Below are positions 1,412-31,952 of a stretch of 64,000 bases of DNA, piece by piece. The stretch lies in sequence record MN850622.1; one strand, given 5' to 3'. The position numbers were made by a program, and so were the translations under genes. The notes under the pieces were generated by a model. That model searched no databases. It was given only the letters and a program-made list of their open reading frames with translations, and was not told where the DNA came from. Source of the DNA: Escherichia phage mobillu. Positions within the stretch are counted from its first letter, which is position 1. Every line of letters begins with the position of its first letter.

Positions 1412-2047
1412 ATGAAAACTACACCAATCACTATCGCTATTGACGCAATCGTAAAACAAGCTTCATCTCTTGCCACTATGGCTAAAGTAATTAGTCAAAA
1501 CCCTGCTCGGTATAATGCTATTCTTGAAACTCTTCGTCGCCCTGGACTGAGTAATTATGAAAGTCGTGTAATTATTACAGGTGTTGGTAAGAACGCTAAT
1601 ATCGCAACTAAAGCTTCCGAGACTTTTGCTTCACTAGGTATTCCTAGCATGTATTTGAACACTGGGCATTATTCTCATGGTGACGCAGGATTTATTGCAC
1701 CTAATGATGTATTAGTTCACATCAGCCGTTCTGGTAAGACTGAAGAAATGATAGGTGTTGCTAAACATCTTCGTATGATTCGTCCTCAGGTTAAACAGAT
1801 TCTGTTACATTGTAACCCTGACATTCCACAAGAATACGAAGCCCTTTTTGATTACTCTTTCTGTACAGGCATCGCGGTAGAGGTTGATGAGAATTCTCTG
1901 GCTCCGACCATGTCCACTACATTGTTGTTAGCGCTTATCGATACGTTTGCTATCAACCTTTCGTCTGAACGTGGATTTACCTCTAATGATTTCCTTAAGT
2001 TCCATCCAGGCGGTGCACTAGGTGCCATGTTACGAGGCGAACAATGA
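1412..2047 (+). CDS. SIS-domain sugar-phosphate isomerase (arabinose-5-phosphate isomerase KdsD/GutQ-like, SIS domain only)
   Basis: SIS signatures VIITGVGKNANIATKASETFASLG and HISRSGKTEE; 211 aa; sits in the T4 imm slot between 43 and 42. Confidence 0.6.
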   Translation: MKTTPITIAIDAIVKQASSLATMAKVISQNPARYNAILETLRRPGLSNYESRVIITGVGKNANIATKASETFASLGIPSMYLNTGHYSHGDAGFIAPNDVLVHISRSGKTEEMIGVAKHLRMIRPQVKQILLHCNPDIPQEYEALFDYSFCTGIAVEVDENSLAPTMSTTLLLALIDTFAINLSSERGFTSNDFLKFHPGGALGAMLRGEQ

Positions 2048-2187
2048 AAGCAATAACAATAGGACTTTTACTATTGATGCTTGTCATGACTATCTACTGG
2101 AGCTTAACGGCTCCGGTAATGATTCCAACACTTGTAATTGGATGGATTATGATTGGTCTACAGGCAAAGTATGAATGCTTTAACTAG
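2044..2187 (+). CDS. small hydrophobic protein (47 aa, two predicted TM segments)
   Basis: ATGA overlap with upstream stop (translational coupling); strongly hydrophobic; not in ORF track (<60 aa). Confidence 0.3.
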   Translation: MKAITIGLLLLMLVMTIYWSLTAPVMIPTLVIGWIMIGLQAKYECFN

Positions 2188-2228
2188 AATAGTGTACAAT
2201 ACTCCTACTTACCAATGAGGACTTCAAC

Positions 2229-3914
2229 ATGAAAAAAGCTGTTATTCTTGGTGCTGGATTGGCAACTCGTTTGTATCCAATAACGCATCATATTCCTAAG
2301 GTGCTTGTTAACTATAAACAAGACACTATTCTGAGCAATTTGTATACAATTTATTCTGACCTTGGCGCAGATGAAATTATTGTAGTAGTTCATTCAAAAT
2401 TTGCTGAAACTGTTCGAGCTTATTGTGAGCAAGAAGGGTTCAATGTGACTATTCGTACAGTTGATGAAGCGTATGGTTCTGCTTATGCTCTTGCTAAATT
2501 ACACAAAGATTTAGACGGCCATAATGTAATTGTTAACTGGTGTGATATTATTCCCGATTTTGGTTCATGGTCTTGGAATGTTAACGCAATCTATGTTAAG
2601 GGTGACGAATGTCGATATAATTTCGACGGTGAAAATATCACTAACGTAGGTTCAACAGGTGGTAATGTTGTAGGAATTTATCAGTTCAAAGACTGGGAAT
2701 TCTATATGGGTTCTACTGATGAGGAAATTCATGAATACTGCAAAGGACGTGATTTCGTAGAATTCCTTTACGGCAGCGCATTCAATAAATCAGAGCTTAT
2801 GAATATAATTGATTTAGGTGATATGCCTAAACTTGAAAAGGCTCATGAAGTTCGTGAACTTAATCGTAGTTTTAATGCAGTTGAAATTGGTGAAGAAACT
2901 GTAACTAAATTCGCATTAACCGAACAGGGACGAGCTCTTCAGAAAGATGAGATTTCGTGGTATTTGAAAGTGAAATCAGATTCAGTTCCTCAGTTAGTTT
3001 CTGTTAATGAAAATAACTTTGAAATGGAACGCATTAAAGGTAAGCCGGCATTTGAATATATTAAATCAAAATCAAGTCTTGCTCGTCCACAAATTATTGA
3101 TGCAATTTTAGATGCACTGAAATTCAGCACAGACACTTATTTTGTAAGTCCTGAAACTGTTCGTCGTGATTTCACTAAAGAATTCTATACGAAAGTTATT
3201 GATCGTTGTGAAAGCATTCAACCATTGATTGATTCATTTGGTAAAATCACACATGTGAACTACACTAAGATTGGACGTCTGAAGCCAATGCTGAAACAAG
3301 CTTTAGAACACCTTATTCGTTATCATAACCGTTCTCAGGGACAGTACTCTGTTATTCATGGTGACCCGAACTTCAGTAATACTATGATTACTGATAACGG
3401 CGAAGTCAAGTTTATCGACCCTCGTGGATATTTTGGCGAAACCAAGATTTACGGGCCAAAATTGTATGATGAAGCTAAAGTGCTTTATGCTGTTTCAGGT
3501 TATGATGAATTCAATGCTAATCCGACCTGGGGACAGTTTACTATTGATGAAACAACTTGTAATGTGACTATTAACATCAATCCATTAGTTTACAAATATG
3601 GAAAGATGAGTTCGTTTAACGAGTATCATCATTTGGCTGTAGCAATTATCTGGATTGCATTAGGTGGTTATTTCAAGAATAATCCACTTAAAGCGGTAGC
3701 CGCATATTATAAAGGTATGGAACTTCTGACTAAGCAATTACGTAACATGGGCCGTGTACTTCAAGACGGCTCTATTAGTTATGACGTAGCAGAACCTGTA
3801 ACGGCTACTCTGATTACAAAAAATCCTGGTAAATGGGTACTAACTGATAAAGAAACTGGTGTTTCCTATCGTCCAATCGGTGGCGATATCACTCATCAAT
3901 GGGAACGAATCTAA
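2229..3914 (+). CDS. bifunctional sugar-phosphate nucleotidyltransferase / phosphotransferase (APH or choline-kinase-like kinase domain)
   Basis: N-terminus MKKAVILGAGLATRLYPIT has the GxGxRL motif of sugar-1-P nucleotidyltransferases; C-terminal HGDPNFSNTMI plus IDPRG resemble the Brenner motif and DxG of APH/choline-kinase fold. Confidence 0.6.
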   Translation: MKKAVILGAGLATRLYPITHHIPKVLVNYKQDTILSNLYTIYSDLGADEIIVVVHSKFAETVRAYCEQEGFNVTIRTVDEAYGSAYALAKLHKDLDGHNVIVNWCDIIPDFGSWSWNVNAIYVKGDECRYNFDGENITNVGSTGGNVVGIYQFKDWEFYMGSTDEEIHEYCKGRDFVEFLYGSAFNKSELMNIIDLGDMPKLEKAHEVRELNRSFNAVEIGEETVTKFALTEQGRALQKDEISWYLKVKSDSVPQLVSVNENNFEMERIKGKPAFEYIKSKSSLARPQIIDAILDALKFSTDTYFVSPETVRRDFTKEFYTKVIDRCESIQPLIDSFGKITHVNYTKIGRLKPMLKQALEHLIRYHNRSQGQYSVIHGDPNFSNTMITDNGEVKFIDPRGYFGETKIYGPKLYDEAKVLYAVSGYDEFNANPTWGQFTIDETTCNVTININPLVYKYGKMSSFNEYHHLAVAIIWIALGGYFKNNPLKAVAAYYKGMELLTKQLRNMGRVLQDGSISYDVAEPVTATLITKNPGKWVLTDKETGVSYRPIGGDITHQWERI

Positions 3915-4300
3915 TGCACCGTGTAGAAAACATGCTTAATCTTTGTTTTGATGTCGATGATTGTATAACAGAGTGGAATAACAATCGTGATTACGTGAAC
4001 TTCAAACCAGACGTCGAAATGGTGTCTGCCATTAATGCCCTGTATGATGCAGGGCATACCATAACGCTTTACACTGCTCGCGGTATGAAGTCAGTAGGTC
4101 CTGGTCGTATAGCAATTGACATTCTCCCAAGTCTGATTCAGAACTTGGCAAACATTGGCTTGAAGTACCATAATTTGCTAACACATAAACCAGTATATGA
4201 TTGGATTATCGACGACAAAGCTATGCGTCCTGACGAATTCAAAGCTCTTATGAATAAAGGCGAATTCGAAACATTTAAATCATATAAACCAAATCTATAA
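3914..4300 (+). CDS. HAD-superfamily-like small phosphatase
   Basis: N-terminal FDVDDCIT (DxD-type motif I) and C-terminal WIIDDKA (motif IV-like); TAATG overlap with upstream gene; alternative in-frame start at 3899. Confidence 0.45.
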   Translation: MHRVENMLNLCFDVDDCITEWNNNRDYVNFKPDVEMVSAINALYDAGHTITLYTARGMKSVGPGRIAIDILPSLIQNLANIGLKYHNLLTHKPVYDWIIDDKAMRPDEFKALMNKGEFETFKSYKPNL

Positions 4301-4357
4301 TAATTTAAGTAAGACCTGCAAAAACCATCGCATCAATTAACGTGAGATGCAAAAAAA

Positions 4358-5518
4358 ATGAATACTTTTAAAATCGGAACGAATTTTGATTTAGCTCTTC
4401 TTGATAAAATCGTAGAGCTCAATAAAACTTATCCTAATAGCTTGATAAACGAAGTATACGGCTCTACAAGAGAAATGGCTTTTGTAGCAGCCAGACCTGA
4501 TTTTAGGCTTCCTGACGTTGACAAAAAGATGTTAGAAGATTACGTTAAACGTTGTAACGAATTAGGTATTTGCTTTAACTATACACTCAACACGATAAAT
4601 CCTGGTTCAAAAAGAGAACTAGTTGAGTGGAAGAAGAAAGCTATTCAGGATTATGTTCAGTATCTTTGGTCAATAGGCGTATGGCGTATTACTATCGCTA
4701 ACCCTGTTGTTATGGAAATTGTTCGTGAAGTCAATAAAGACATTGAGATTGAAGTTTCAACAATTCTACATGTCGATGCTGTAACTCAAATCAAATACTT
4801 GCATGACCAGTATAATATCAAAAAGGTCTGCTGTGGAATTCATAAGAACCGTTCAGTTTCTTTCCTGAAGCGTGCAGCAGAGTTTTGCAATAAGAACAAT
4901 ATAATATTTGAAGTTCTTGTAAATGAGTTCTGTTCTAATGCTGGTAAAGGGTATACAACACATTGTAGCTATCGTGACTCTTGCTATATTTTCCATAGTA
5001 CTGATGTTACAGCTGATGATGCTAAATCCTTAAACGGATATCCTATGCAGCACTGTATTAAAGCTCGTGATACAGACCCATTTAACTGGTTGAGAACTCG
5101 TTTTGTTCGTCCTCAAGATTTGAAACTTTATAATGATATTGGTATCACTCAATTCAAAGTTTCAGGACGTACAGGTAGCACAGACTACATTTTGAAAGTT
5201 CTTGAAGCATACGCTTCTGAAAAGTTTGAAGGTAATTTGTTAGAACTGTGGAAGCCTTTAGAGACTATTTTCACTCTTGAAAATGAGACCGAGTTTTCAC
5301 ATACGGTAAATATTGAAACCTCTTTGTTAGATGGCTTTTTAGAAAAAAGGTGGTTCAGACATCCAGATTTCGATTGTGCTAATGAAATCTGCGGGACGAC
5401 GTGTACATATTGTGAAAGATATTATAAACGTCAGTTATCTAAAAATGGGTTATCAGAAAATTCTATATCTATTATTGATATAACTAACTCTGATGACGCT
5501 TTGAGGTACCCAGAATGA
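4358..5518 (+). CDS. hypothetical protein, possible peptidase-U32-like fold
   Basis: 386-aa ORF with RBS; Cys-containing segment EFCSNAGKGYTTHCSYRDSC loosely resembles the U32 family signature; assignment tentative. Confidence 0.35.
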   Translation: MNTFKIGTNFDLALLDKIVELNKTYPNSLINEVYGSTREMAFVAARPDFRLPDVDKKMLEDYVKRCNELGICFNYTLNTINPGSKRELVEWKKKAIQDYVQYLWSIGVWRITIANPVVMEIVREVNKDIEIEVSTILHVDAVTQIKYLHDQYNIKKVCCGIHKNRSVSFLKRAAEFCNKNNIIFEVLVNEFCSNAGKGYTTHCSYRDSCYIFHSTDVTADDAKSLNGYPMQHCIKARDTDPFNWLRTRFVRPQDLKLYNDIGITQFKVSGRTGSTDYILKVLEAYASEKFEGNLLELWKPLETIFTLENETEFSHTVNIETSLLDGFLEKRWFRHPDFDCANEICGTTCTYCERYYKRQLSKNGLSENSISIIDITNSDDALRYPE

Positions 5519-5754
5519 TTTCTAGAAAAACTTTTAACCACCAACTTAATGAAGAGATTTTGACTATGAAAATTAACAGCAACGAACAAATTCTTAAAAA
5601 GGCCCTTATGGGCCTGTTTGAAACTAAAGCGGCTAAAGTGATTAAAGGACCTGTTCAATTGGAATACTACGCTGATGCATTTCTTCATAGTGTTCTTGGA
5701 AGTATCGATGCTGAAGCTTTACGTTATATCAACATTGTCAAGAAATTCAAATAA
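5515..5754 (+). CDS. hypothetical protein (79 aa)
   Basis: ATGA overlap with upstream gene; no recognisable motif. Confidence 0.45.
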   Translation: MISRKTFNHQLNEEILTMKINSNEQILKKALMGLFETKAAKVIKGPVQLEYYADAFLHSVLGSIDAEALRYINIVKKFK

Positions 5755-5796: not shown

Positions 5797-6513
5797 ATGG
5801 GAAAACATAACACAATGAAATATATCAAAGCCGCAGATTTTCAAACCGCATTTAAAGCAGTCAATCGTGAAATTTTAGAAAACCCGGAATTCGTAACTGA
5901 TTCTCGTATTGGACGTTGTAATGAAATTGGGTCTATGACAGTAGTTGTTGACACTCCATCATCATTCAAAATGACCGACCCACGTATTAACCGCATCTCT
6001 TATGAATACGCCGAAGATTTCTGGAAGTTTATGATTTCTGGTGGTACCAACGCAGAAGAAGCGTTTAAGGCATATCCTAATGTCGCTAAATTTATTTCTA
6101 AACCAAAATCAGATGTTTTGCCGGCGAACTTCAACACTTTCTACGGTCCTCGCATTGCGGCCCAATTACCAGCTCTTCTAAAAGAACTTAAAGAGAAGCC
6201 TAACTCCCGAAGAGTTGTGTTCCAAATTCTAGAAAGTTCTGATCAGGCTTTGCTTGATTCAGACGAAACGCTTGAATATCCATGTACTGACTCAGTGACT
6301 TATTATATTCGTGATGGTAAGCTTTATACCCACTGTCATATGCGTTCTCAGAACTGTGCTGTTGTTATGCAGTTGGATTTTTATCTCCAAGGAAAATTAC
6401 TTCATTATATCGCTAACGAATGTGGTGTAGAAGTTGGTGATTATACTCATACCATGGTAAGTGCCCATGTGTTTGAACGTGATTTTGATTATGTTAAAGG
6501 ATTCCTTGACTAA
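5797..6513 (+). CDS. 42: dCMP hydroxymethylase (thymidylate-synthase fold)
   Basis: Matches remembered T4 gp42 blocks: PNSRRVVFQI, YPCTDSVTYYIRDGKLYTHCHMRSQN, VSAHVFERDF; position between uvsX and 43 as in T4. Confidence 0.85.
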   Translation: MGKHNTMKYIKAADFQTAFKAVNREILENPEFVTDSRIGRCNEIGSMTVVVDTPSSFKMTDPRINRISYEYAEDFWKFMISGGTNAEEAFKAYPNVAKFISKPKSDVLPANFNTFYGPRIAAQLPALLKELKEKPNSRRVVFQILESSDQALLDSDETLEYPCTDSVTYYIRDGKLYTHCHMRSQNCAVVMQLDFYLQGKLLHYIANECGVEVGDYTHTMVSAHVFERDFDYVKGFLD

Positions 6514-7412
6514 TGGCTATTTTCCGCGTACCAATCTTGAGTATGCGGTCTTATGAAACTGGACAGTATGCTATCCTTAAGGATGGCAACTTCCAACTTC
6601 ATTTGCACCGTGCTAATCCAGGTGATGTGATTACATATCCACGTAATGCATCTGATATTAAAGAATGCGAACGTCTTTTCCCAGAATTTAAGTTTGTTCC
6701 ATTATGGTATAAAGATAACGCGTATAACACTCGTAAATATTTCTGGTCTGAAAATGAATTTGTGGTTGATTCATTAATTGCTTATTATGATTGTGATTTT
6801 CTAATCACAGATATCACCGGATATGACGGTGCTTTTGATGTAGAATTCAATTTCAATATCACTGCAGACCCTAATAAACCACGTTTTTATATTGACGAAT
6901 TCTTAAAAACCGACATGTTGTCGGTTAATCGTTCACTTCAAACTACTGTGTTGAACGAACGTCAAAAAGAAGTGCTGGTTAACGCAGGTGCAGATGGTAA
7001 TAAGATTATCGTAACGCAGAAAGTTATACGTCCTTCCATCATGCAGCGTCTTGTAGGTGATTTGGCTCCTATTCATCTAGATGGTATTTTTCATCCATTT
7101 CGAATTAGCGACCCGTGCTATCGTTTTGAACAAGTGGTTGAATGTGCAATTCAATTAGGCCAACCGCTTTATATAACCGATCCAAATAATAGCTTCGACA
7201 GAAATAAGTATCCTGAAGAAGCGCTGATTCGAATTTTTAAACCAACTAAAACTGAGTACTATCAAATTCTTAAAGGACGTCCGAAAATTCAATATTTCGA
7301 AAATCCTGAAGAAGTATTCCATCCAGGTCTTGGTGAGTTCATCTACTTTAATGCTTTAATTTCTTCGCCGTATAATATACCTAAATATGAAGATGTCGTA
7401 ATCGAGGAATAA
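6513..7412 (+). CDS. hypothetical protein (299 aa) occupying the T4 beta-glucosyltransferase slot
   Basis: TAATG overlap with gene 42; no recognisable motif; positional replacement of beta-gt. Confidence 0.5.
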   Translation: MAIFRVPILSMRSYETGQYAILKDGNFQLHLHRANPGDVITYPRNASDIKECERLFPEFKFVPLWYKDNAYNTRKYFWSENEFVVDSLIAYYDCDFLITDITGYDGAFDVEFNFNITADPNKPRFYIDEFLKTDMLSVNRSLQTTVLNERQKEVLVNAGADGNKIIVTQKVIRPSIMQRLVGDLAPIHLDGIFHPFRISDPCYRFEQVVECAIQLGQPLYITDPNNSFDRNKYPEEALIRIFKPTKTEYYQILKGRPKIQYFENPEEVFHPGLGEFIYFNALISSPYNIPKYEDVVIEE

Positions 7413-7413
7413 A

Positions 7414-7962
7414 ATGGCTAAAATTATTTTAGTAGATGGCCCAGATAATGCTGGTAAAACAACTTTCATTAATGACATAATGGAAATTAGTGAAAGATAT
7501 GTAAAGATTGATTTCCCTAAACGAACAGTTGATGGGCGTTTCGATGTTAAGTCTCGAAATGAAGTTGGCTGCTTCGAAACGATGTTGAATTATTTAGACC
7601 CTACTAAGATTTATCTGTTAGACCGTGGATATATTAGTAACTGGGTTTATGGACGTATTCGACAAGATGCGGACTCGGTTCTTGACGTTTATGAACAGGA
7701 TTATGTTCGTCTTTGCCAAAACCATGATGTGTTCACAATTATTTTAACACGTAACGAAATGACTGAAAGTTTTGAAGACGACCTTATTACTTTGTCTTCA
7801 TTCGGTTTTAATACAGTCATTTCACATTTTGAAGAGTTTGCAATTCATAACAAAATCCAAACGTATCAATTACTTAATCATGATGGTGCTAACAAAGTTA
7901 TAGGATTTAATGCAAGCGAACGTAATTATTTGATTACAGAAATTATCAAATGGGCTCGTTAA
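7414..7962 (+). CDS. P-loop kinase, thymidylate-kinase-like (dNMP/nucleoside kinase fold)
   Basis: P-loop IILVDGPDNAGKTTF and DR-motif LLDRGYISNWVYG resemble Tmk family. Confidence 0.5.
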   Translation: MAKIILVDGPDNAGKTTFINDIMEISERYVKIDFPKRTVDGRFDVKSRNEVGCFETMLNYLDPTKIYLLDRGYISNWVYGRIRQDADSVLDVYEQDYVRLCQNHDVFTIILTRNEMTESFEDDLITLSSFGFNTVISHFEEFAIHNKIQTYQLLNHDGANKVIGFNASERNYLITEIIKWAR

Positions 7963-26472: not shown

Positions 26473-28290
26473 ATGATTAAAAATGAAATTAAGGTATTGT
26501 CAGATGTAGAACATATTAAGAAACGTAGTGGTATGTATATTGGTTCTTCGGCTAAAGAAGCCCACGAGCGTTTTTTGTTTGGTAAATATCAACAAGTTGA
26601 ATATGTTCCTGGTCTGGTTAAATTAATCGATGAGATTATTGACAACTCGGTTGATGAAGCTATTCGTACATCATTTAAGTTTGCAAATAAAATTGATGTG
26701 CAAATTAAAAATAATCAAGTTTCGGTGGAAGATAACGGACGTGGTATTCCTCAAGGTTTAGTTACCGACCAAACAGGTGAACAAATTCCTGGACCTGTAG
26801 CAGCCTGGACTATTCCAAAGGCCGGTGGTAACTTTGGTGATGACTCTGAACGCAAGACTGGTGGTATGAACGGCGTCGGGAGTAGTTTAACTAATATCTT
26901 CTCTACGTTGTTTACAGGCATCACGTCAGATGGCGAAAACGAAATCACTGTTAACTGTTCAAACGGAATGGAAAACAAATCATGGTCTTCTAAGAAATCT
27001 AAAGGTAAAGGCACTAAAGTAATCTTCACTCCTGATTTCTCTTCATTTGAAGAGCATAATTTATCTCAAATTTATTTAGATATTACTTTAGACCGACTTC
27101 AAACATTGGCAGTCGTTTATCCTGATATCAAGTTCACATTTAATGGTAAAAAGGTTGATGGTAATTTTAAACGATTTGCTAAACAATTTGGCGAAGATAA
27201 CATCATTCAAGAAAATGATAAAGTCTCTATAGCATTCACAACATCACCAGATGGCTTCCGTCATTTAACTTATGTGAATAACATCCATACTAAAAATGGT
27301 GGTCATCATGTTGAATGTGTAATGGATGATATCTGTGAACATCTTTTGCCTGGTATTAAAAAGAAATATAAGGGTATTGAAGTCACTAAAGCTCGTGTTA
27401 AAGAATGTCTCACAATGTTGATGTTTATTAGAGACATGAGCAACATGCGTTTTGATTCTCAGACTAAAGAACGTTTAACGTCAACGTATGGTGATATTCG
27501 TAATCATATCCAATTAGATGCTAAGAAAATTGCTCAGGCACTTCTTAAAAACGAAGCCTTGATTATGCCTATTGTTGAAGCAGCATTAGCTCGTAAATTG
27601 GCAGCAGAAAAGGCTGCAGAAACTAAAGCAGCTAAAAAGGCAACTAAAGCTAAGGTTCATAAGCATATTAAAGCTAACCAATGTGGTAAAGATGCAGATA
27701 CGACATTGTTTTTAACAGAAGGTGATTCGGCAATTGGTTATCTCATTGATGTTCGTGACCGTGAACTACACGGCGGATTCCCATTACGTGGTAAGGTGAT
27801 GAATAGCTGGGGTATGTCATATGCTGATATGATGAAGAACAAAGAGCTCTTTGATATCTGTGCTATCACGGGTCTTATTCTTGGTGAAAAGGCAGAGAAT
27901 ACGAACTATCGTAATATTGCAATTATGACCGATGCCGATCATGACGGTCTTGGAAGTATTTATCCGGCTTTGCTTGCTTTCTTTAGTAATTGGCCTGAAT
28001 TGTTTGAACAAGGACGTATTCGCTTTGTTAAAACGCCTGTAATTATTGCACAAATTGGCAAAACTCAAAAATGGTTTTATACTGTAGCTGAGTATGAAGA
28101 AGTTAAAGATACACTGCCTAAGCATAGTATTAGATACATCAAGGGATTAGGCTCCCTTGAAAAGTCAGAATATCGTGAAATGATTCAGAACCCTGTGTAC
28201 GACGTAGTTAAACTTCCTGAAAATTGGAAAGAACTCTTTGAAATGTTGATGGGTGATGATTCAGAACTTCGTAAAGAATGGATGTCCTAA
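26473..28290 (+). CDS. 39: DNA topoisomerase II large subunit, gp39 with gp60-equivalent C-terminus fused (GyrB-like)
   Basis: GHKL ATPase N-terminus and Toprim region; 605 aa, i.e. the T4 39 + 60 products as a single uninterrupted ORF. Confidence 0.92.
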   Translation: MIKNEIKVLSDVEHIKKRSGMYIGSSAKEAHERFLFGKYQQVEYVPGLVKLIDEIIDNSVDEAIRTSFKFANKIDVQIKNNQVSVEDNGRGIPQGLVTDQTGEQIPGPVAAWTIPKAGGNFGDDSERKTGGMNGVGSSLTNIFSTLFTGITSDGENEITVNCSNGMENKSWSSKKSKGKGTKVIFTPDFSSFEEHNLSQIYLDITLDRLQTLAVVYPDIKFTFNGKKVDGNFKRFAKQFGEDNIIQENDKVSIAFTTSPDGFRHLTYVNNIHTKNGGHHVECVMDDICEHLLPGIKKKYKGIEVTKARVKECLTMLMFIRDMSNMRFDSQTKERLTSTYGDIRNHIQLDAKKIAQALLKNEALIMPIVEAALARKLAAEKAAETKAAKKATKAKVHKHIKANQCGKDADTTLFLTEGDSAIGYLIDVRDRELHGGFPLRGKVMNSWGMSYADMMKNKELFDICAITGLILGEKAENTNYRNIAIMTDADHDGLGSIYPALLAFFSNWPELFEQGRIRFVKTPVIIAQIGKTQKWFYTVAEYEEVKDTLPKHSIRYIKGLGSLEKSEYREMIQNPVYDVVKLPENWKELFEMLMGDDSELRKEWMS

Positions 28291-28316
28291 GCTCCTTCGG
28301 GAGCTTCATTTTAATT
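28289..28316 (+). terminator. terminator-like hairpin
   Basis: AAGCTCC-TTCG-GGAGCTT followed by cattttaatttt. Confidence 0.45.
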
Positions 28317-28332
28317 TTAATAAGGCTTAATT

Positions 28333-29433
28333 ATGAAAGTTATGTTTATCCCATCTCGCGCAGTCCCATTTAACCCAGAACGTGTACAAGGTGGTCTTGA
28401 AGCAGTACATTTAAATGTGTTGAAATATCTTGTGTCCATCGGTGCTGATATTGATTATATCGGCTTTGATAATGACACGTTTGGTGACTGGAAGGTTAAT
28501 CATCATCCTGTTGGTCATCTGACTAAATTCAGTCTAGGTATGAGTTATACTATGGCTCGTAAGATTGTTGAACTAGCCGGCATTAATGAGTACGATTTCG
28601 TTGTTACAATGGAACCGACCAAACTAACCGTTCAGGCAATTAAAGACGCAGGTCTCTCTAAAGTTCATAAGAATTTTATGGCAACACCATTTGAACCAGT
28701 ATCTCGTGGCATTGTTCAAATTTGGGACCAGACTATTCAAATTCATAAGAACGGTGGTAAGAGTTATGCTCCTACTAAAGCCTTCCGTGAATTTGAACGC
28801 AAATATTGTTATATGACTTCAGGTCTGACTGACAAAATTGATTATGATTATTGGCGAGCAAATCCGTTGTTTGAAGCCGAAGATTATCCGGTTATTTGTT
28901 TGAATGATAAACCTGAAGTTCTTCCGGCGACTGATCTGATTATTAGTGCACAACGTTATGACACTAAAATGCGTCGTACTGATGTTGCTCTTGAAGCGAT
29001 TAAAGCACTAGGCGAAAATGGTGCAGGATACTGTCCTAGTAAATGGGCACCACCAGCTAAATATCCTGTTATTATTGATGCTCCACACAGTGAAATCATG
29101 GAACGTCTTAAAATGGCTAAAGCACTTATTAATACGTGTCCTGACACAGGTACGGTAGAGAATAGTTCTATTGAAGCCATCTCTAAAGGTGTCCCTGTAA
29201 TCCAGTTAGTTTTTAAGGATTATCCTCATGCGACATTCGAATACGACCCGGATACTGTGCGTGTAGAAATTGATTCCTCTACTCCTAAGAAAGAAGTAGT
29301 TGCGCTTTACACAAAAGCTGTATTAGAATTCACTGACACATACGAAGCTCGAGTTAAACGTGCTGAAGCAGTATGGAAGAAATATAATCGAGATGCAGTT
29401 GTTGCGATGTGGGATAAAATCTTCACAGCGTAA
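28333..29433 (+). CDS. GT-B fold glycosyltransferase, candidate DNA hmC glycosyl (arabinosyl) transferase
   Basis: N-terminus MKVMFIPSRAVPFNPERVQGGLEAV resembles GT4/GT5 N-termini; C-terminal TGTVENSSIEAISKGVPVIQ resembles the GT-B donor-binding motif; sits between 39 and rIIA. Confidence 0.5.
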   Translation: MKVMFIPSRAVPFNPERVQGGLEAVHLNVLKYLVSIGADIDYIGFDNDTFGDWKVNHHPVGHLTKFSLGMSYTMARKIVELAGINEYDFVVTMEPTKLTVQAIKDAGLSKVHKNFMATPFEPVSRGIVQIWDQTIQIHKNGGKSYAPTKAFREFERKYCYMTSGLTDKIDYDYWRANPLFEAEDYPVICLNDKPEVLPATDLIISAQRYDTKMRRTDVALEAIKALGENGAGYCPSKWAPPAKYPVIIDAPHSEIMERLKMAKALINTCPDTGTVENSSIEAISKGVPVIQLVFKDYPHATFEYDPDTVRVEIDSSTPKKEVVALYTKAVLEFTDTYEARVKRAEAVWKKYNRDAVVAMWDKIFTA

Positions 29434-29449: not shown

Positions 29450-29500
29450 GGCACTATTACACATAAGATGATAGATTATATGGTCTTTAGTAATAGTGCC
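29450..29500 (+). repeat. perfect 11-bp inverted repeat flanking a 29-bp AT-rich spacer
   Basis: GGCACTATTAC (29450-29460) and GTAATAGTGCC (29490-29500). Confidence 0.7.
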
Positions 29501-29525: not shown

Positions 29526-29726
29526 ATGAGAACATATAACGTGGACTTGGAACTTTTTGATAAAGCAGTGCTCCGGGAATTCCGGCTTATCCAAAGATTT
29601 TTTGATATCGAATCAGCAGAGTCCTTTAAAGAACGCTTTAAAGAAATTCGATATAAAATACAAACCGATACAGCTACTAAAGAAGAACTTCTTGAAGTAG
29701 CAGAAATTTTTAAACGTAACTTGTGA
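29526..29726 (+). CDS. hypothetical protein (66 aa), rIIA.1 position
   Basis: RBS gaagagaatattATG; immediately upstream of rIIA. Confidence 0.5.
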   Translation: MRTYNVDLELFDKAVLREFRLIQRFFDIESAESFKERFKEIRYKIQTDTATKEELLEVAEIFKRNL

Positions 29727-29738
29727 TGAGAGAAAAAT

Positions 29739-31952
29739 ATGATTATTGAAACGGCTAAAGAAACGATTATTGGTTCTGGTGGTAAAAGCACAGCATTTAC
29801 TATTCAAGGCAATAGCAAAGTTTATAAGATTTTGTCTAATGACCTTTATACAAACAAAGAATTGGCTTGTGTACGTGAATTAATCACAAACTGTATTGAT
29901 GGGCAAATTCTTAATGGTTGCACTGATAAGTTTATTGTTCAGGCACCAGGTCGTTTAGACCCACGTTTTGTAGTTCGAGACTTTGGTCCTGGTATGAGTG
30001 ATTTCACCATTCGAGGTAATGACGAAGAGCCAGGAATTTATAACTCATATTTTGCTTCAACTAAAACATCGAGTAACGATTTCATTGGTGGATTCGGACT
30101 CGGCTCTAAAGCTCCATTAGCATATACCGATACGTTTAACCTTACGTCTTATCACAACGGCGAAGTTCGTGGTTACGTAATCTACCAAGATGACACGGGT
30201 CCACAAATTAAGCCGACCTTTGTAGATAAGATGGGTCCTGATGACCGTACTGGTGTAGAAGTAGTCGTACCGGTTAACCCGGAAGATTTTGAAAAGTTTG
30301 CATCCGAAATTGCGTATGTTATGCGTCCTCTAGGTGATATTGCAGAAGTTCGTGGTGTTAAAGATATTAAATACTTCCCTGAATTTGACGATGTATATTT
30401 GGCCAAGGAAGCTCCATGGGGTGAACGCGGTAATATCATGGCTGTTTACGGTGGTATTGTATATCCAATCGGAAGTGTTATTAAAGAACAAACATGGATG
30501 ATGACGCGATGCACTACAGCTTATATTAAATTCCCTATGGGTGAACTAGATGTAGCTCCGTCTCGTGAAGCATTGTCATTTGATAAACGTACGGTAGCAA
30601 ATATCCATAAACGCGTTGCAGAAATCGATGCTAAATTGTTCGCTGAAGATTCTAAGAAATGGATTGATTGTAAATACCCACGTCATGTGTTCCGTGAAAT
30701 TGATTCTCTTGGCTATACCGCTCGTAAATACATGGAAAAGGCTGGGTCTAATATTGAATCACTGAAATACTCTAAAGAACAACTAACTTATTCTGAGTTG
30801 TACAAACGTTTTAAAATGGGGCCTGAGTGGTGTAATCTTGGCGTCGTATATGATATCGTTGAATCCCCTCGTCTTCGTCGTATTCGTGAAAGTGGTAGCT
30901 CAACGGCAACCATTTCAATTAACAGTCTGATTGGCATTAACATTAAAAACGTTGAAATTGTTATTGACGACGTTAAGGGACGCGTTCCATTAATGCGAGC
31001 TCTTAATTCAATTGAAATGTCTAAAGACGAGGTTAAATTAACTGGTAAAGTTCCACGCGGTTTTGGTAAAAGCGTACTATTCGTTGACCCTACAGACGAA
31101 GATGCAATGAAACTTCTGGAACGCCTTAAAGTTATCTTTGTTGGCGACAACATTAACATGTACAAGACTTCAGAGCTTTTACAAATCGTTAAGCCATGGA
31201 TTGAAGTCAGGAAACGAACTAATGAGCCTCGTCCTAAATCGCCAAGTGCTCATCGATTCTTTAAGAATGAAAACGATGTTTGGGTATCAGAAGACCTCTT
31301 TATTCCGGCAAGTGAAGCAGATGAAATCCAAGGTTATGCTATAGTTCGTAATCGTTCTAATGCTGAATGTCTTGATGCAGATAAAGGTTGGTTGAACTAT
31401 GACTCTAATTTCTTGACCCGTATTGCTGATTTGTCAGATATTAAAGAGTTCACTGTAGTCCGTCCACAGATTGCTAAGAAAGTTCGTAAACTTGGTGAAG
31501 TAGAATGCTTGTTCGAAAAATCAATTAATGACTATATTACGCTAATCGATAAAGTAGATTATGATGAGTATGTATCACCAAGTCGTAGAGCACAGCCCTA
31601 TCTAAACCATATTACTCGTAATGAAGAGCTTAACTTCCTTAGTAAGTATTTTAGCTCTAAGAACAAAGAAATCAGTAAAGATTTTGCAAAACTCTCCACA
31701 GTAAATAATCGCTGGGGATGGAATCGATTCGCAGGTGCTACTAATACAGACCTGAATAAGAAGTTAGAATTGTGTGCTAAAATTTTCGATAAGCTTAAAG
31801 ATAATGCTTACGATAATGATGATAAAATGGTTATTGAATTCGAAACCAATTATCATATTGTGACAGAATACATGGGACGACGTGGTACTCTTTCAAAAGA
31901 ACAGGTCGCTCAAATCGTTAAATTCATGAAGGCCGTGGAAGCGGCCAAATAA
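29739..31952 (+). CDS. rIIA: rIIA membrane-associated protector from prophage-induced early lysis
   Basis: 737 aa; N-terminus MIIETAKETIIGSGGKS...KVYKILSNDLYTNK matches remembered T4 rIIA; adjacent to rIIB. Confidence 0.85.
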   Translation: MIIETAKETIIGSGGKSTAFTIQGNSKVYKILSNDLYTNKELACVRELITNCIDGQILNGCTDKFIVQAPGRLDPRFVVRDFGPGMSDFTIRGNDEEPGIYNSYFASTKTSSNDFIGGFGLGSKAPLAYTDTFNLTSYHNGEVRGYVIYQDDTGPQIKPTFVDKMGPDDRTGVEVVVPVNPEDFEKFASEIAYVMRPLGDIAEVRGVKDIKYFPEFDDVYLAKEAPWGERGNIMAVYGGIVYPIGSVIKEQTWMMTRCTTAYIKFPMGELDVAPSREALSFDKRTVANIHKRVAEIDAKLFAEDSKKWIDCKYPRHVFREIDSLGYTARKYMEKAGSNIESLKYSKEQLTYSELYKRFKMGPEWCNLGVVYDIVESPRLRRIRESGSSTATISINSLIGINIKNVEIVIDDVKGRVPLMRALNSIEMSKDEVKLTGKVPRGFGKSVLFVDPTDEDAMKLLERLKVIFVGDNINMYKTSELLQIVKPWIEVRKRTNEPRPKSPSAHRFFKNENDVWVSEDLFIPASEADEIQGYAIVRNRSNAECLDADKGWLNYDSNFLTRIADLSDIKEFTVVRPQIAKKVRKLGEVECLFEKSINDYITLIDKVDYDEYVSPSRRAQPYLNHITRNEELNFLSKYFSSKNKEISKDFAKLSTVNNRWGWNRFAGATNTDLNKKLELCAKIFDKLKDNAYDNDDKMVIEFETNYHIVTEYMGRRGTLSKEQVAQIVKFMKAVEAAK

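Follow-up and report, generated by a model that had tools for sequence, protein, structure and literature searches.

A GT-B glycosyltransferase encoded between gene 39 and rIIA of Escherichia phage mobillu is a likely second-step arabinosyltransferase of phage DNA

We analyzed a 64,000-nt stretch of the genome of Escherichia phage mobillu (sequence record MN850622.1; hereafter the window) for the role of an open reading frame (ORF) at 28333–29433 on the + strand, which begins with ATG and encodes 366 amino acids (aa). With a probability of roughly three in four, its product is a UDP-arabinofuranose (UDP-Araf)-dependent glycosyltransferase (GT) that adds a second arabinose, as β-D-Araf-(1→3), to arabinosylated 5-hydroxycytosine (5hoC) in DNA. 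The fold, the identity to a UDP-bound orthologue, the pathway and the distribution were computed here; the DNA chemistry and the in vitro extension of DNA by a pair of paralogues from phage DLP3 are taken from published work. The gene, its location, its fold, its UDP complex and its proposed second-step role are already present in the 2018–2026 literature. What is gained here is the correction of an outdated label, 'hmC arabinosyltransferase' (hmC, 5-hydroxymethylcytosine), the pointing out of an overlooked first GT at 6513–7412 (299 aa; hereafter the cluster GT), and the flagging of database gaps, both proteins being still unnamed or of unknown function in Pfam, NCBIfam and PHROGs.

Phage DNA that carries arabinosylated 5hoC is shielded against restriction enzymes, against the Brig1 glycosylase and against type I CRISPR-Cas, a protection that changes with the length of the arabinose chain. 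In Bas46, according to a citation of Mahler et al. 2025, deletion of the arabinosyltransferase 'Aat' sensitises the phage to a defence system. The identity of the gene that sets the chain length thus bears on phage engineering, on how such DNA is sequenced and on predictions of which defence systems a phage will be sensitive to.

The first-pass annotation of this DNA had placed a glycosyltransferase gene between topoisomerase gene 39 and rIIA, and the ORF is present exactly as described, with gp39 on its 5′ side and rIIA.1/rIIA on its 3′ side. Its protein begins with MKVMFIPSRAVPFNPERVQGG and reads ENSSIEAISKGVPVI at residues 276–290. By megablast, full-length orthologues occur in 155 phage records at 90–99% nucleotide identity, all of them RB69-like (Mosigvirus-type) coliphages and Shigella phages, with vB_Eco_NicPhage as the best match (98.9%). 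In comparisons with two of these orthologues, synonymous differences far outnumber the others (22:3 and 28:7), giving non-synonymous to synonymous ratios (pN/pS) of 0.04 and 0.07. Ratios this low point firmly to a functional gene under strong purifying selection and not to a chance ORF.

Profile databases returned little for the protein. A Pfam scan gave 0 matches at E ≤ 10 and an NCBIfam scan gave none, and in PHROGs the protein falls into phrog_8302 ('unknown function'; E = 9e-222, residues 1–366 on profile positions 1–366), together with gp76 and gp77 of DLP3. The family is small: a word-index search of 5.8 billion proteins found 5 clusters, and a profile search of 1.84 billion representatives found 12 clusters at E ≤ 1e-3, 7 more than the word-index search. 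The AlphaFold model built on the shallow 5-cluster alignment was unusable, with a predicted local distance difference test (pLDDT) score of 60.6, and the 7 added clusters sufficed for a good one (pLDDT 91.5). This model shows two Rossmann-like β/α/β domains, an inter-domain cleft and a C-terminal helix that crosses back. The protein is 98% identical to a glycosyltransferase of phage HY126 whose crystal structures, apo (PDB 9IQZ) and with UDP (9IR0), were released in 2025, and the model superimposes on them with template modelling (TM) scores of 0.95–0.97. We conclude that the 366-aa GT is a genuine GT-B glycosyltransferase and the orthologue of RB69 ORF003c/gp3. The first-pass annotation had called it a GT-B enzyme and had proposed structure prediction as the check, and that prediction found the fold.

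The same 98% identity to the HY126 protein in 9IR0 predicts that the 366-aa GT binds UDP. Motifs expected to contact a nucleotide sugar are invariant or nearly so across the family, namely G20-G21 in the first loop, R208 and R214 six residues apart, and E281-A-x3-G286-x-P288-V. In the EX7E region, neither the second Glu nor the helix that carries it varies (E281-A282...G286-x-P288-V289), and the first Glu, E276, is placed four residues upstream instead of eight (E276-x4-E281). The Pfam profiles that define GT4 enzymes, Glycos_transf_1 and Glyco_transf_4, do not match the 366-aa GT. Weak matches to GT4 profiles appear in 2–3 of 15 family members, the most distant ones (Glyco_transf_4, 1.6e-7; Glycos_transf_1, 2.3e-5; GT4-conflict, 1e-3). 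A search of PDB sequences with the family profile found no GT4 chain at E ≤ 1, so the link to GT4 is one of fold.

Beyond the HY126 structures, the model resembles retaining GT4-type GT-B enzymes (sucrose-phosphate synthase 6KIH, BshA 3MBO/6N1X, BGluT 5ZER/9V0L, PimA 2GEJ and MshA 3C4Q), with which it shares only 10–15% identity. The 366-aa GT differs from these enzymes in having no Pfam GT4 match, in the apparent contraction of EX7E to E276-x4-E281, in its proposed acceptor, a sugar on DNA, and in its proposed donor, a furanose nucleotide. A comparison with the T4 glucosyltransferases, also suggested by the first-pass annotation, revealed no close kinship: T4 α-GT (1Y6F/1XV5) ranks 37th among the structural matches, behind about 35 bacterial GT4/GT5 enzymes, T4 β-GT is outside the top 60, and tblastn against 50,697 phage records found no match to the 366-aa GT in T4-type phages. 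The 366-aa GT belongs to neither T4 family. The T4 enzymes glycosylate the hydroxymethyl group of the base, whereas the 366-aa GT most likely glycosylates a sugar. A functional analogue is the β-α-glucosyltransferase of T2 and T6, which adds a second sugar to a first and leaves a disaccharide, gentiobiosyl-hmC, on part of the sites. That enzyme differs in its sugar (glucose instead of arabinofuranose) and in its base (hmC instead of 5hoC).

Published chemistry defines the acceptor. Thomas et al. 2018 detected arabinose in the DNA of RB69 and, from custom hidden Markov models (HMMs), HHpred and Phyre2 and without biochemistry, put forward ORF003c (366 aa; NP_861693) as the arabinosyltransferase; this is the RB69 proposal to which the first-pass annotation had correctly referred. 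ORF003c and the HY126 GT are the same gene as the one in the window, with 366 aa, the gp39–rIIA position and, for the crystallised protein, 98% identity, and they differ by strain-level substitutions only. By tandem mass spectrometry (MS/MS) and nuclear magnetic resonance (NMR), RB69 cytosines are β-D-Araf-(1→3)-α-D-Araf-O5-5-hydroxy-dC, accompanied by the mono-arabinosyl form, and they lack a methylene bridge (Lee et al. 2026, NAR, PMC13326640), and NMR and mass spectrometry of RB69 and NicPhage DNA agree on an ether linkage of arabinose to 5hoC (PMC13326640, PMC13390438). In NicPhage, 5-ara-dC and 5-ara-ara-dC occur at about 1:4 (Durham-collection paper). The 2018 label 'hmC arabinosyltransferase' has been superseded by 'beta-arabinosyltransferase 2' acting on arabinosyl-5hoC, the role proposed for gp3, the counterpart of the 366-aa GT, with gp46:47, the counterpart of the cluster GT, proposed as the first transferase (PMC13326640); the second-arabinose role of gp3 was also proposed, in general terms, in PMC13390438.

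The window itself argues for the same base. The ThyA homologue at 5797–6513 (+) is 98% identical to PDB 9IQC/9IR2, which come from the same HY126 deposition series as 9IQZ/9IR0. It carries RSQN where thymidylate synthases have RSxD, and LDF in place of PFN, changes that correspond to D169N and N177D in Escherichia coli ThyA numbering (...HMRSQNCAVVMQLDF... aligned against ...YQRSADIFLGVPFNI... of ThyA). An Asn-to-Asp change at N177 is expected in a cytosine-specific enzyme. Asn at the position of D169 is the signature of 5-hydroxy-dCMP synthases (Lee et al. 2026, PMC13326640). Judged by these residues, the homologue is not a dCMP hydroxymethylase, the name that many GenBank records give it, but a flavin-type 5-hydroxy-dCMP synthase. 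The hmC acceptor assumed by the first-pass annotation is therefore replaced by 5hoC, on the D169N homologue together with the chemistry of RB69 and NicPhage DNA.

We compared the distribution of the two transferases across the 50,697 phage records. The family of the 366-aa GT was found by tblastn in 211: 155 RB69-like records with one place each, 55 Acinetobacter phage records with two places each, and 1 Tegunavirus record. The cluster GT occurs in 348 records from more than 10 host genera, in phages of Escherichia (including Dhakavirus JS98), Klebsiella, Enterobacter, Edwardsiella, Serratia, Yersinia, Pectobacterium, Proteus, Providencia, Shewanella and Acinetobacter, and it lies directly beside the ThyA homologue in the annotated rows among the matches listed. 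The two distributions point to the cluster GT as a universal component of arabinosylating phages, as far as sequence searches reveal it, and to the 366-aa GT family as an accessory subset. The single record whose organism name starts with 'Tegunavirus' matches the family at <60% identity, and in other Yersinia Tegunavirus phages the cluster GT was the only one of the two found; this record is predicted to carry more than one arabinose.

The number of family members follows the length of the arabinose chain. Phages with the cluster GT and no family copy carry a single sugar (LC53, one arabinose; Thanatos, one pentose), and those with one family copy carry one and two arabinoses (RB69, NicPhage, Bas46 and Bas47). 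DLP3, with two copies (gp76 and gp77), carries up to three, the third being attached β-(1→5) (Lee et al. 2026, PMC13326640). For Bas46 and Bas47 double arabinosylation of the DNA is published, as is single arabinosylation for LC53. Thus, in every chemically characterised case found, chain lengths of 1, 2 and 3 correspond to 0, 1 and 2 family copies. In LC53, the cassette for cytosine arabinosylation is intact, the syntenic rIIA–rIIA.1–gp39 interval has only two tiny ORFs, and the family HMM found nothing in the first 50 kb (best E = 0.089, compared with 1.6e-151 for the gene in the window). The same HMM found no second family member in the 64-kb window, and tblastn found one place per Mosigvirus record. 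In DLP3, gp77 and gp76 directly follow thyA, the cluster GT and the kinase inside the cassette. Together, these two proteins use UDP-Araf in vitro to lengthen the chains on RB69 virion DNA by a further arabinose; individual DLP3 GTs show no activity on DNA containing only 5hoC (PMC13326640). They share 41–42% identity with the 366-aa GT over the full length, as well as its PHROG, and they differ from it in several respects: they are two tandem copies inside the cassette, the assayed reaction is the third, β-(1→5)-linked arabinose and both proteins are required, whereas the 366-aa GT is a single copy 21 kb from the cassette.

A complete cassette for cytosine arabinosylation is present in the same window, adjoining the DNA polymerase gene and followed by UvsX. 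It begins with a SIS-domain arabinose-5-phosphate isomerase (1412–2047, +; RB69 gp55 orthologue; Pfam SIS), which would take the first step of the donor pathway according to PMC13326640. It is followed by a bifunctional NTP-transferase and kinase (2229–3914, +; RB69 gp52:53, HY126 AfhE-like), with Pfam NTP_transferase at the N-terminus and a kinase-like C-terminus; its NCBIfam matches are sugar-1-phosphate nucleotidylyltransferases, and it is assigned to the synthesis of UDP-Araf. A small HAD-like phosphatase candidate (3899–4300, +; RB69 gp51, HY126 AfhF-like) has no Pfam match and is assigned by position and literature. HY126 AfhE and AfhF make UDP-arabinose, as PMC13326640 reports in citing He et al. 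2026. A Peptidase-U32-like protein (4358–5518, +; RB69 gp50 orthologue; Pfam Peptidase_U32) has its gene in the Mosigvirus and LC53 cassettes, and it is absent from that of DLP3. Next come the ThyA homologue (RB69 gp48 orthologue; Pfam Thymidylat_synt) and, joined to it head-to-tail, the cluster GT (6513–7412, +; 'GT1'; orthologue of RB69 gp46:47, DLP3 gp79 and Thanatos TH1_063). The last gene, at 7414–7962 (+), encodes a 182-aa candidate nucleotide (thymidylate-like) kinase for 5-hydroxy-dCMP (RB69 gp45 orthologue), which has no Pfam match and is assigned from Table 1 of PMC13326640; the equivalent position is occupied in DLP3 and LC53. The gene order, with the supply genes at 1412–4300 and the cluster GT beside the synthase, matches DLP3 and LC53.

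The cluster GT has no Pfam, NCBIfam or PDB sequence match and belongs to phrog_3891 ('unknown'). We considered whether it and the 366-aa GT are paralogues and rejected this, as BLASTP shows no similarity between them. The cluster GT is probably the base-proximal (α) arabinosyltransferase that makes the acceptor for the 366-aa GT. The first-pass annotation had assigned contact with the base to the 366-aa GT itself, which is probably not the case: an unrelated GT at 6513–7412 appears universal in arabinosylating phages, and the 366-aa GT appears accessory, with a copy number that tracks the extra arabinoses. The sugar-nucleotide island that the first-pass annotation placed at 1412–5754 fared better; supply genes are indeed present at 1412–4300, their HY126 counterparts make UDP-arabinose and the orthologue was crystallised with UDP, but an island ending at 5754 omits the GT at 6513–7412.

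Based on these findings, we propose that the 366-aa GT is a soluble, UDP-sugar-dependent GT-B enzyme that would act late in cytosine hypermodification. The ThyA homologue would make 5-hydroxy-dCMP, which kinases and the polymerase would place in DNA, and the cluster GT would then put α-D-Araf on O5. The 366-aa GT, its C-terminal domain holding UDP-Araf made by the genes at 1412–4300, would then attach another Araf to duplex DNA, at O3 of the first sugar. This would leave a β-(1→3) disaccharide on most, not all, sites, corresponding to the 5-ara-ara-dC that dominates Mosigvirus DNA. That the 366-aa GT carries out the second transfer alone, and with this linkage, is what we infer from the combined evidence. 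Both GTs look GT4-like, yet opposite anomers are made from presumably one donor.

Several points weigh against this assignment. No direct assay of the 366-aa GT or of RB69 gp3 was found in the literature, He et al. 2026 and Mahler et al. 2025 aside. Nor is the first step proven: DLP3 gp79 had no activity on 5hoC DNA (PMC13326640), and TH1_063, the homologue in Thanatos, reportedly acted in vitro as a UDP-xylose pyrophosphorylase. Both DLP3 paralogues had to be present for activity, and Mosigvirus has one copy. The fold neighbours are retaining enzymes, and the stereochemical course hinges on the anomeric configuration of the donor. The correlation between copy number and chain length comes from about 8 chemically characterised phages. 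Finally, we attempted to read from a neighbour-joining tree which of the two DLP3 steps the 366-aa GT corresponds to, and rejected the attempt: the two DLP3 paralogue clades are sisters, and the 366-aa GT branches outside both, as an outgroup. This topology makes it, by sequence, co-orthologous to gp76 and gp77 and not to gp77 specifically.

The results on gp79 and TH1_063, an absence of activity in one case and a pyrophosphorylase activity in place of transfer in the other, would also be expected if the 366-aa GT were the base-proximal transferase, placing arabinose straight onto the modified cytosine, with the 299-aa cluster protein otherwise employed, for example in sugar-nucleotide synthesis. 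ORF003c was, in addition, the only GT-like RB69 protein detected by custom HMMs and HHpred (Thomas et al. 2018). We nevertheless consider this arrangement unlikely. At least 130 phage records, from Dhakavirus and from Klebsiella, Serratia, Yersinia, Proteus and Shewanella phages, have the ThyA homologue and the cluster protein without a member of the 366-aa GT family. LC53 and Thanatos are chemically pentosylated without a family member, so another enzyme must perform the first transfer there. Moreover, the family members that have been assayed act on already arabinosylated DNA, and the AfhE-like gene already supplies the uridylyltransferase.

The joint requirement for gp76 and gp77, each inactive alone, raises a different reading, in which the 366-aa GT is needed for di-arabinosylation and is not self-sufficient; it would form a complex with the cluster GT or an oligomer, or would act on the nucleotide before replication. 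This is improbable, somewhat more so than direct transfer to the base. The residues that bind the nucleotide sugar are all conserved and the orthologue crystal holds UDP, so the enzyme appears competent for catalysis; virion DNA served as a substrate for the DLP3 pair, and extension is therefore possible on polymer DNA; and neither the window nor any other Mosigvirus locus offers a second paralogue.

In a last and very improbable reading, the acceptor of the 366-aa GT is not DNA but, for instance, a glycan of the host envelope, a small molecule or a protein of the phage, and the link to di-arabinosylation is coincidental. Some weight is lent to it by the usual acceptors of GT4 enzymes, the lipid, thiol, pterin and sugar substrates of the nearest structural relatives, the 21 kb between the Mosigvirus gene and the cassette, and a 38%-identical metagenomic relative that lies among structural genes and has no modification genes closer than 10 kb. 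Against it stand the Acinetobacter phage paralogues, whose genes come right behind the kinase gene within the cassette and whose products are active on DNA in vitro, the presence of even 19%-identical relatives in DNA-hypermodification clusters, and the lack of any other second-arabinose candidate for Mosigvirus in published surveys.

The distant relatives have contexts of their own. The most distant ones (about 19% identity; phrog_8302 E = 5e-11 and 7e-9) lie on metagenomic contigs L008 (10001–11128) and L009 (10001–11110), in other hypermodification clusters. One is immediately flanked on one side by a TAGT-type base glycosyltransferase gene and on the other by a 5-hmdU DNA-kinase-like gene, with a ThyA homologue encoded upstream, and the other has as neighbours an aDDT-type amino-acid:DNA transferase, an inositol-phosphate-synthase-like gene and AdoMet-decarboxylase-like genes. 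The 38%-identical relative (contig L003, 10001–11140) is surrounded by gp13-like, DUF4815 and large terminase genes. A 293-aa neighbour of another metagenomic relative (P0012) was considered as a homologue of the cluster GT and rejected on comparison. Tentatively, phrog_8302 may belong to a larger, so far unnamed clade of GT4-like enzymes that add further sugars to already modified DNA bases, in arabinose systems and beyond them, a suggestion we hold to be possible and on balance doubtful. If it were true, counting such genes would predict the length of DNA glycans in uncultured phages, and split or duplicated alleles (LH01, EP32B and JK45, described below) could be a sign of phages whose DNA alternates between the mono- and the di-arabinosylated state.

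At the locus itself, the gene lies downstream of the topoisomerase II large subunit, gp39 (26473–28290, +), and upstream of an rIIA.1-like ORF (29526–29726, 66 aa) and rIIA (29739–31952), which is followed by rIIB. The topoisomerase subunit is a single 605-aa protein, the fused arrangement of genes 39 and 60. In T4 the large subunit is divided between these two genes; thus, the organisation of the interval from gp39 to rIIA differs from that of T4.

A scan for promoters and terminators returned fewer promoter-like sites than a shuffled control and was not used. Two inverted repeats flank the gene. A hairpin with a UUCG tetraloop (AAGCTCC-TTCG-GGAGCTT, 28289–28306) overlaps the gp39 stop codon and ends 27 nt before the GT start codon, and the 93-nt spacer between the GT gene and rIIA.1 contains a 10-bp inverted repeat (GGCACTATTA ... 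TAATAGTGCC) within 29450–29500. These may be RNA-stability or termination elements.

Three records carry altered loci. Shigella phage JK45 (MK962757), a Tequatrovirus by classification that has the Mosigvirus-type GT gene, encodes a full-length GT, the usual 93-nt spacer and then a 136-aa ORF (2691–3101 of the extracted locus) in which the first five codons of rIIA.1 (MRTYN) are fused to GT residues 237–366. This ORF is a partial tandem duplication or a recombination scar. In LH01 (PP434429, 2523–3619) and EP32B (OR544955, 137729–138810), the orthologue is split into two annotated coding sequences and was matched in two pieces, which would reflect either a frameshift or a sequencing error. If the splits are real, these two phages are natural candidates for mono-arabinosylated DNA.

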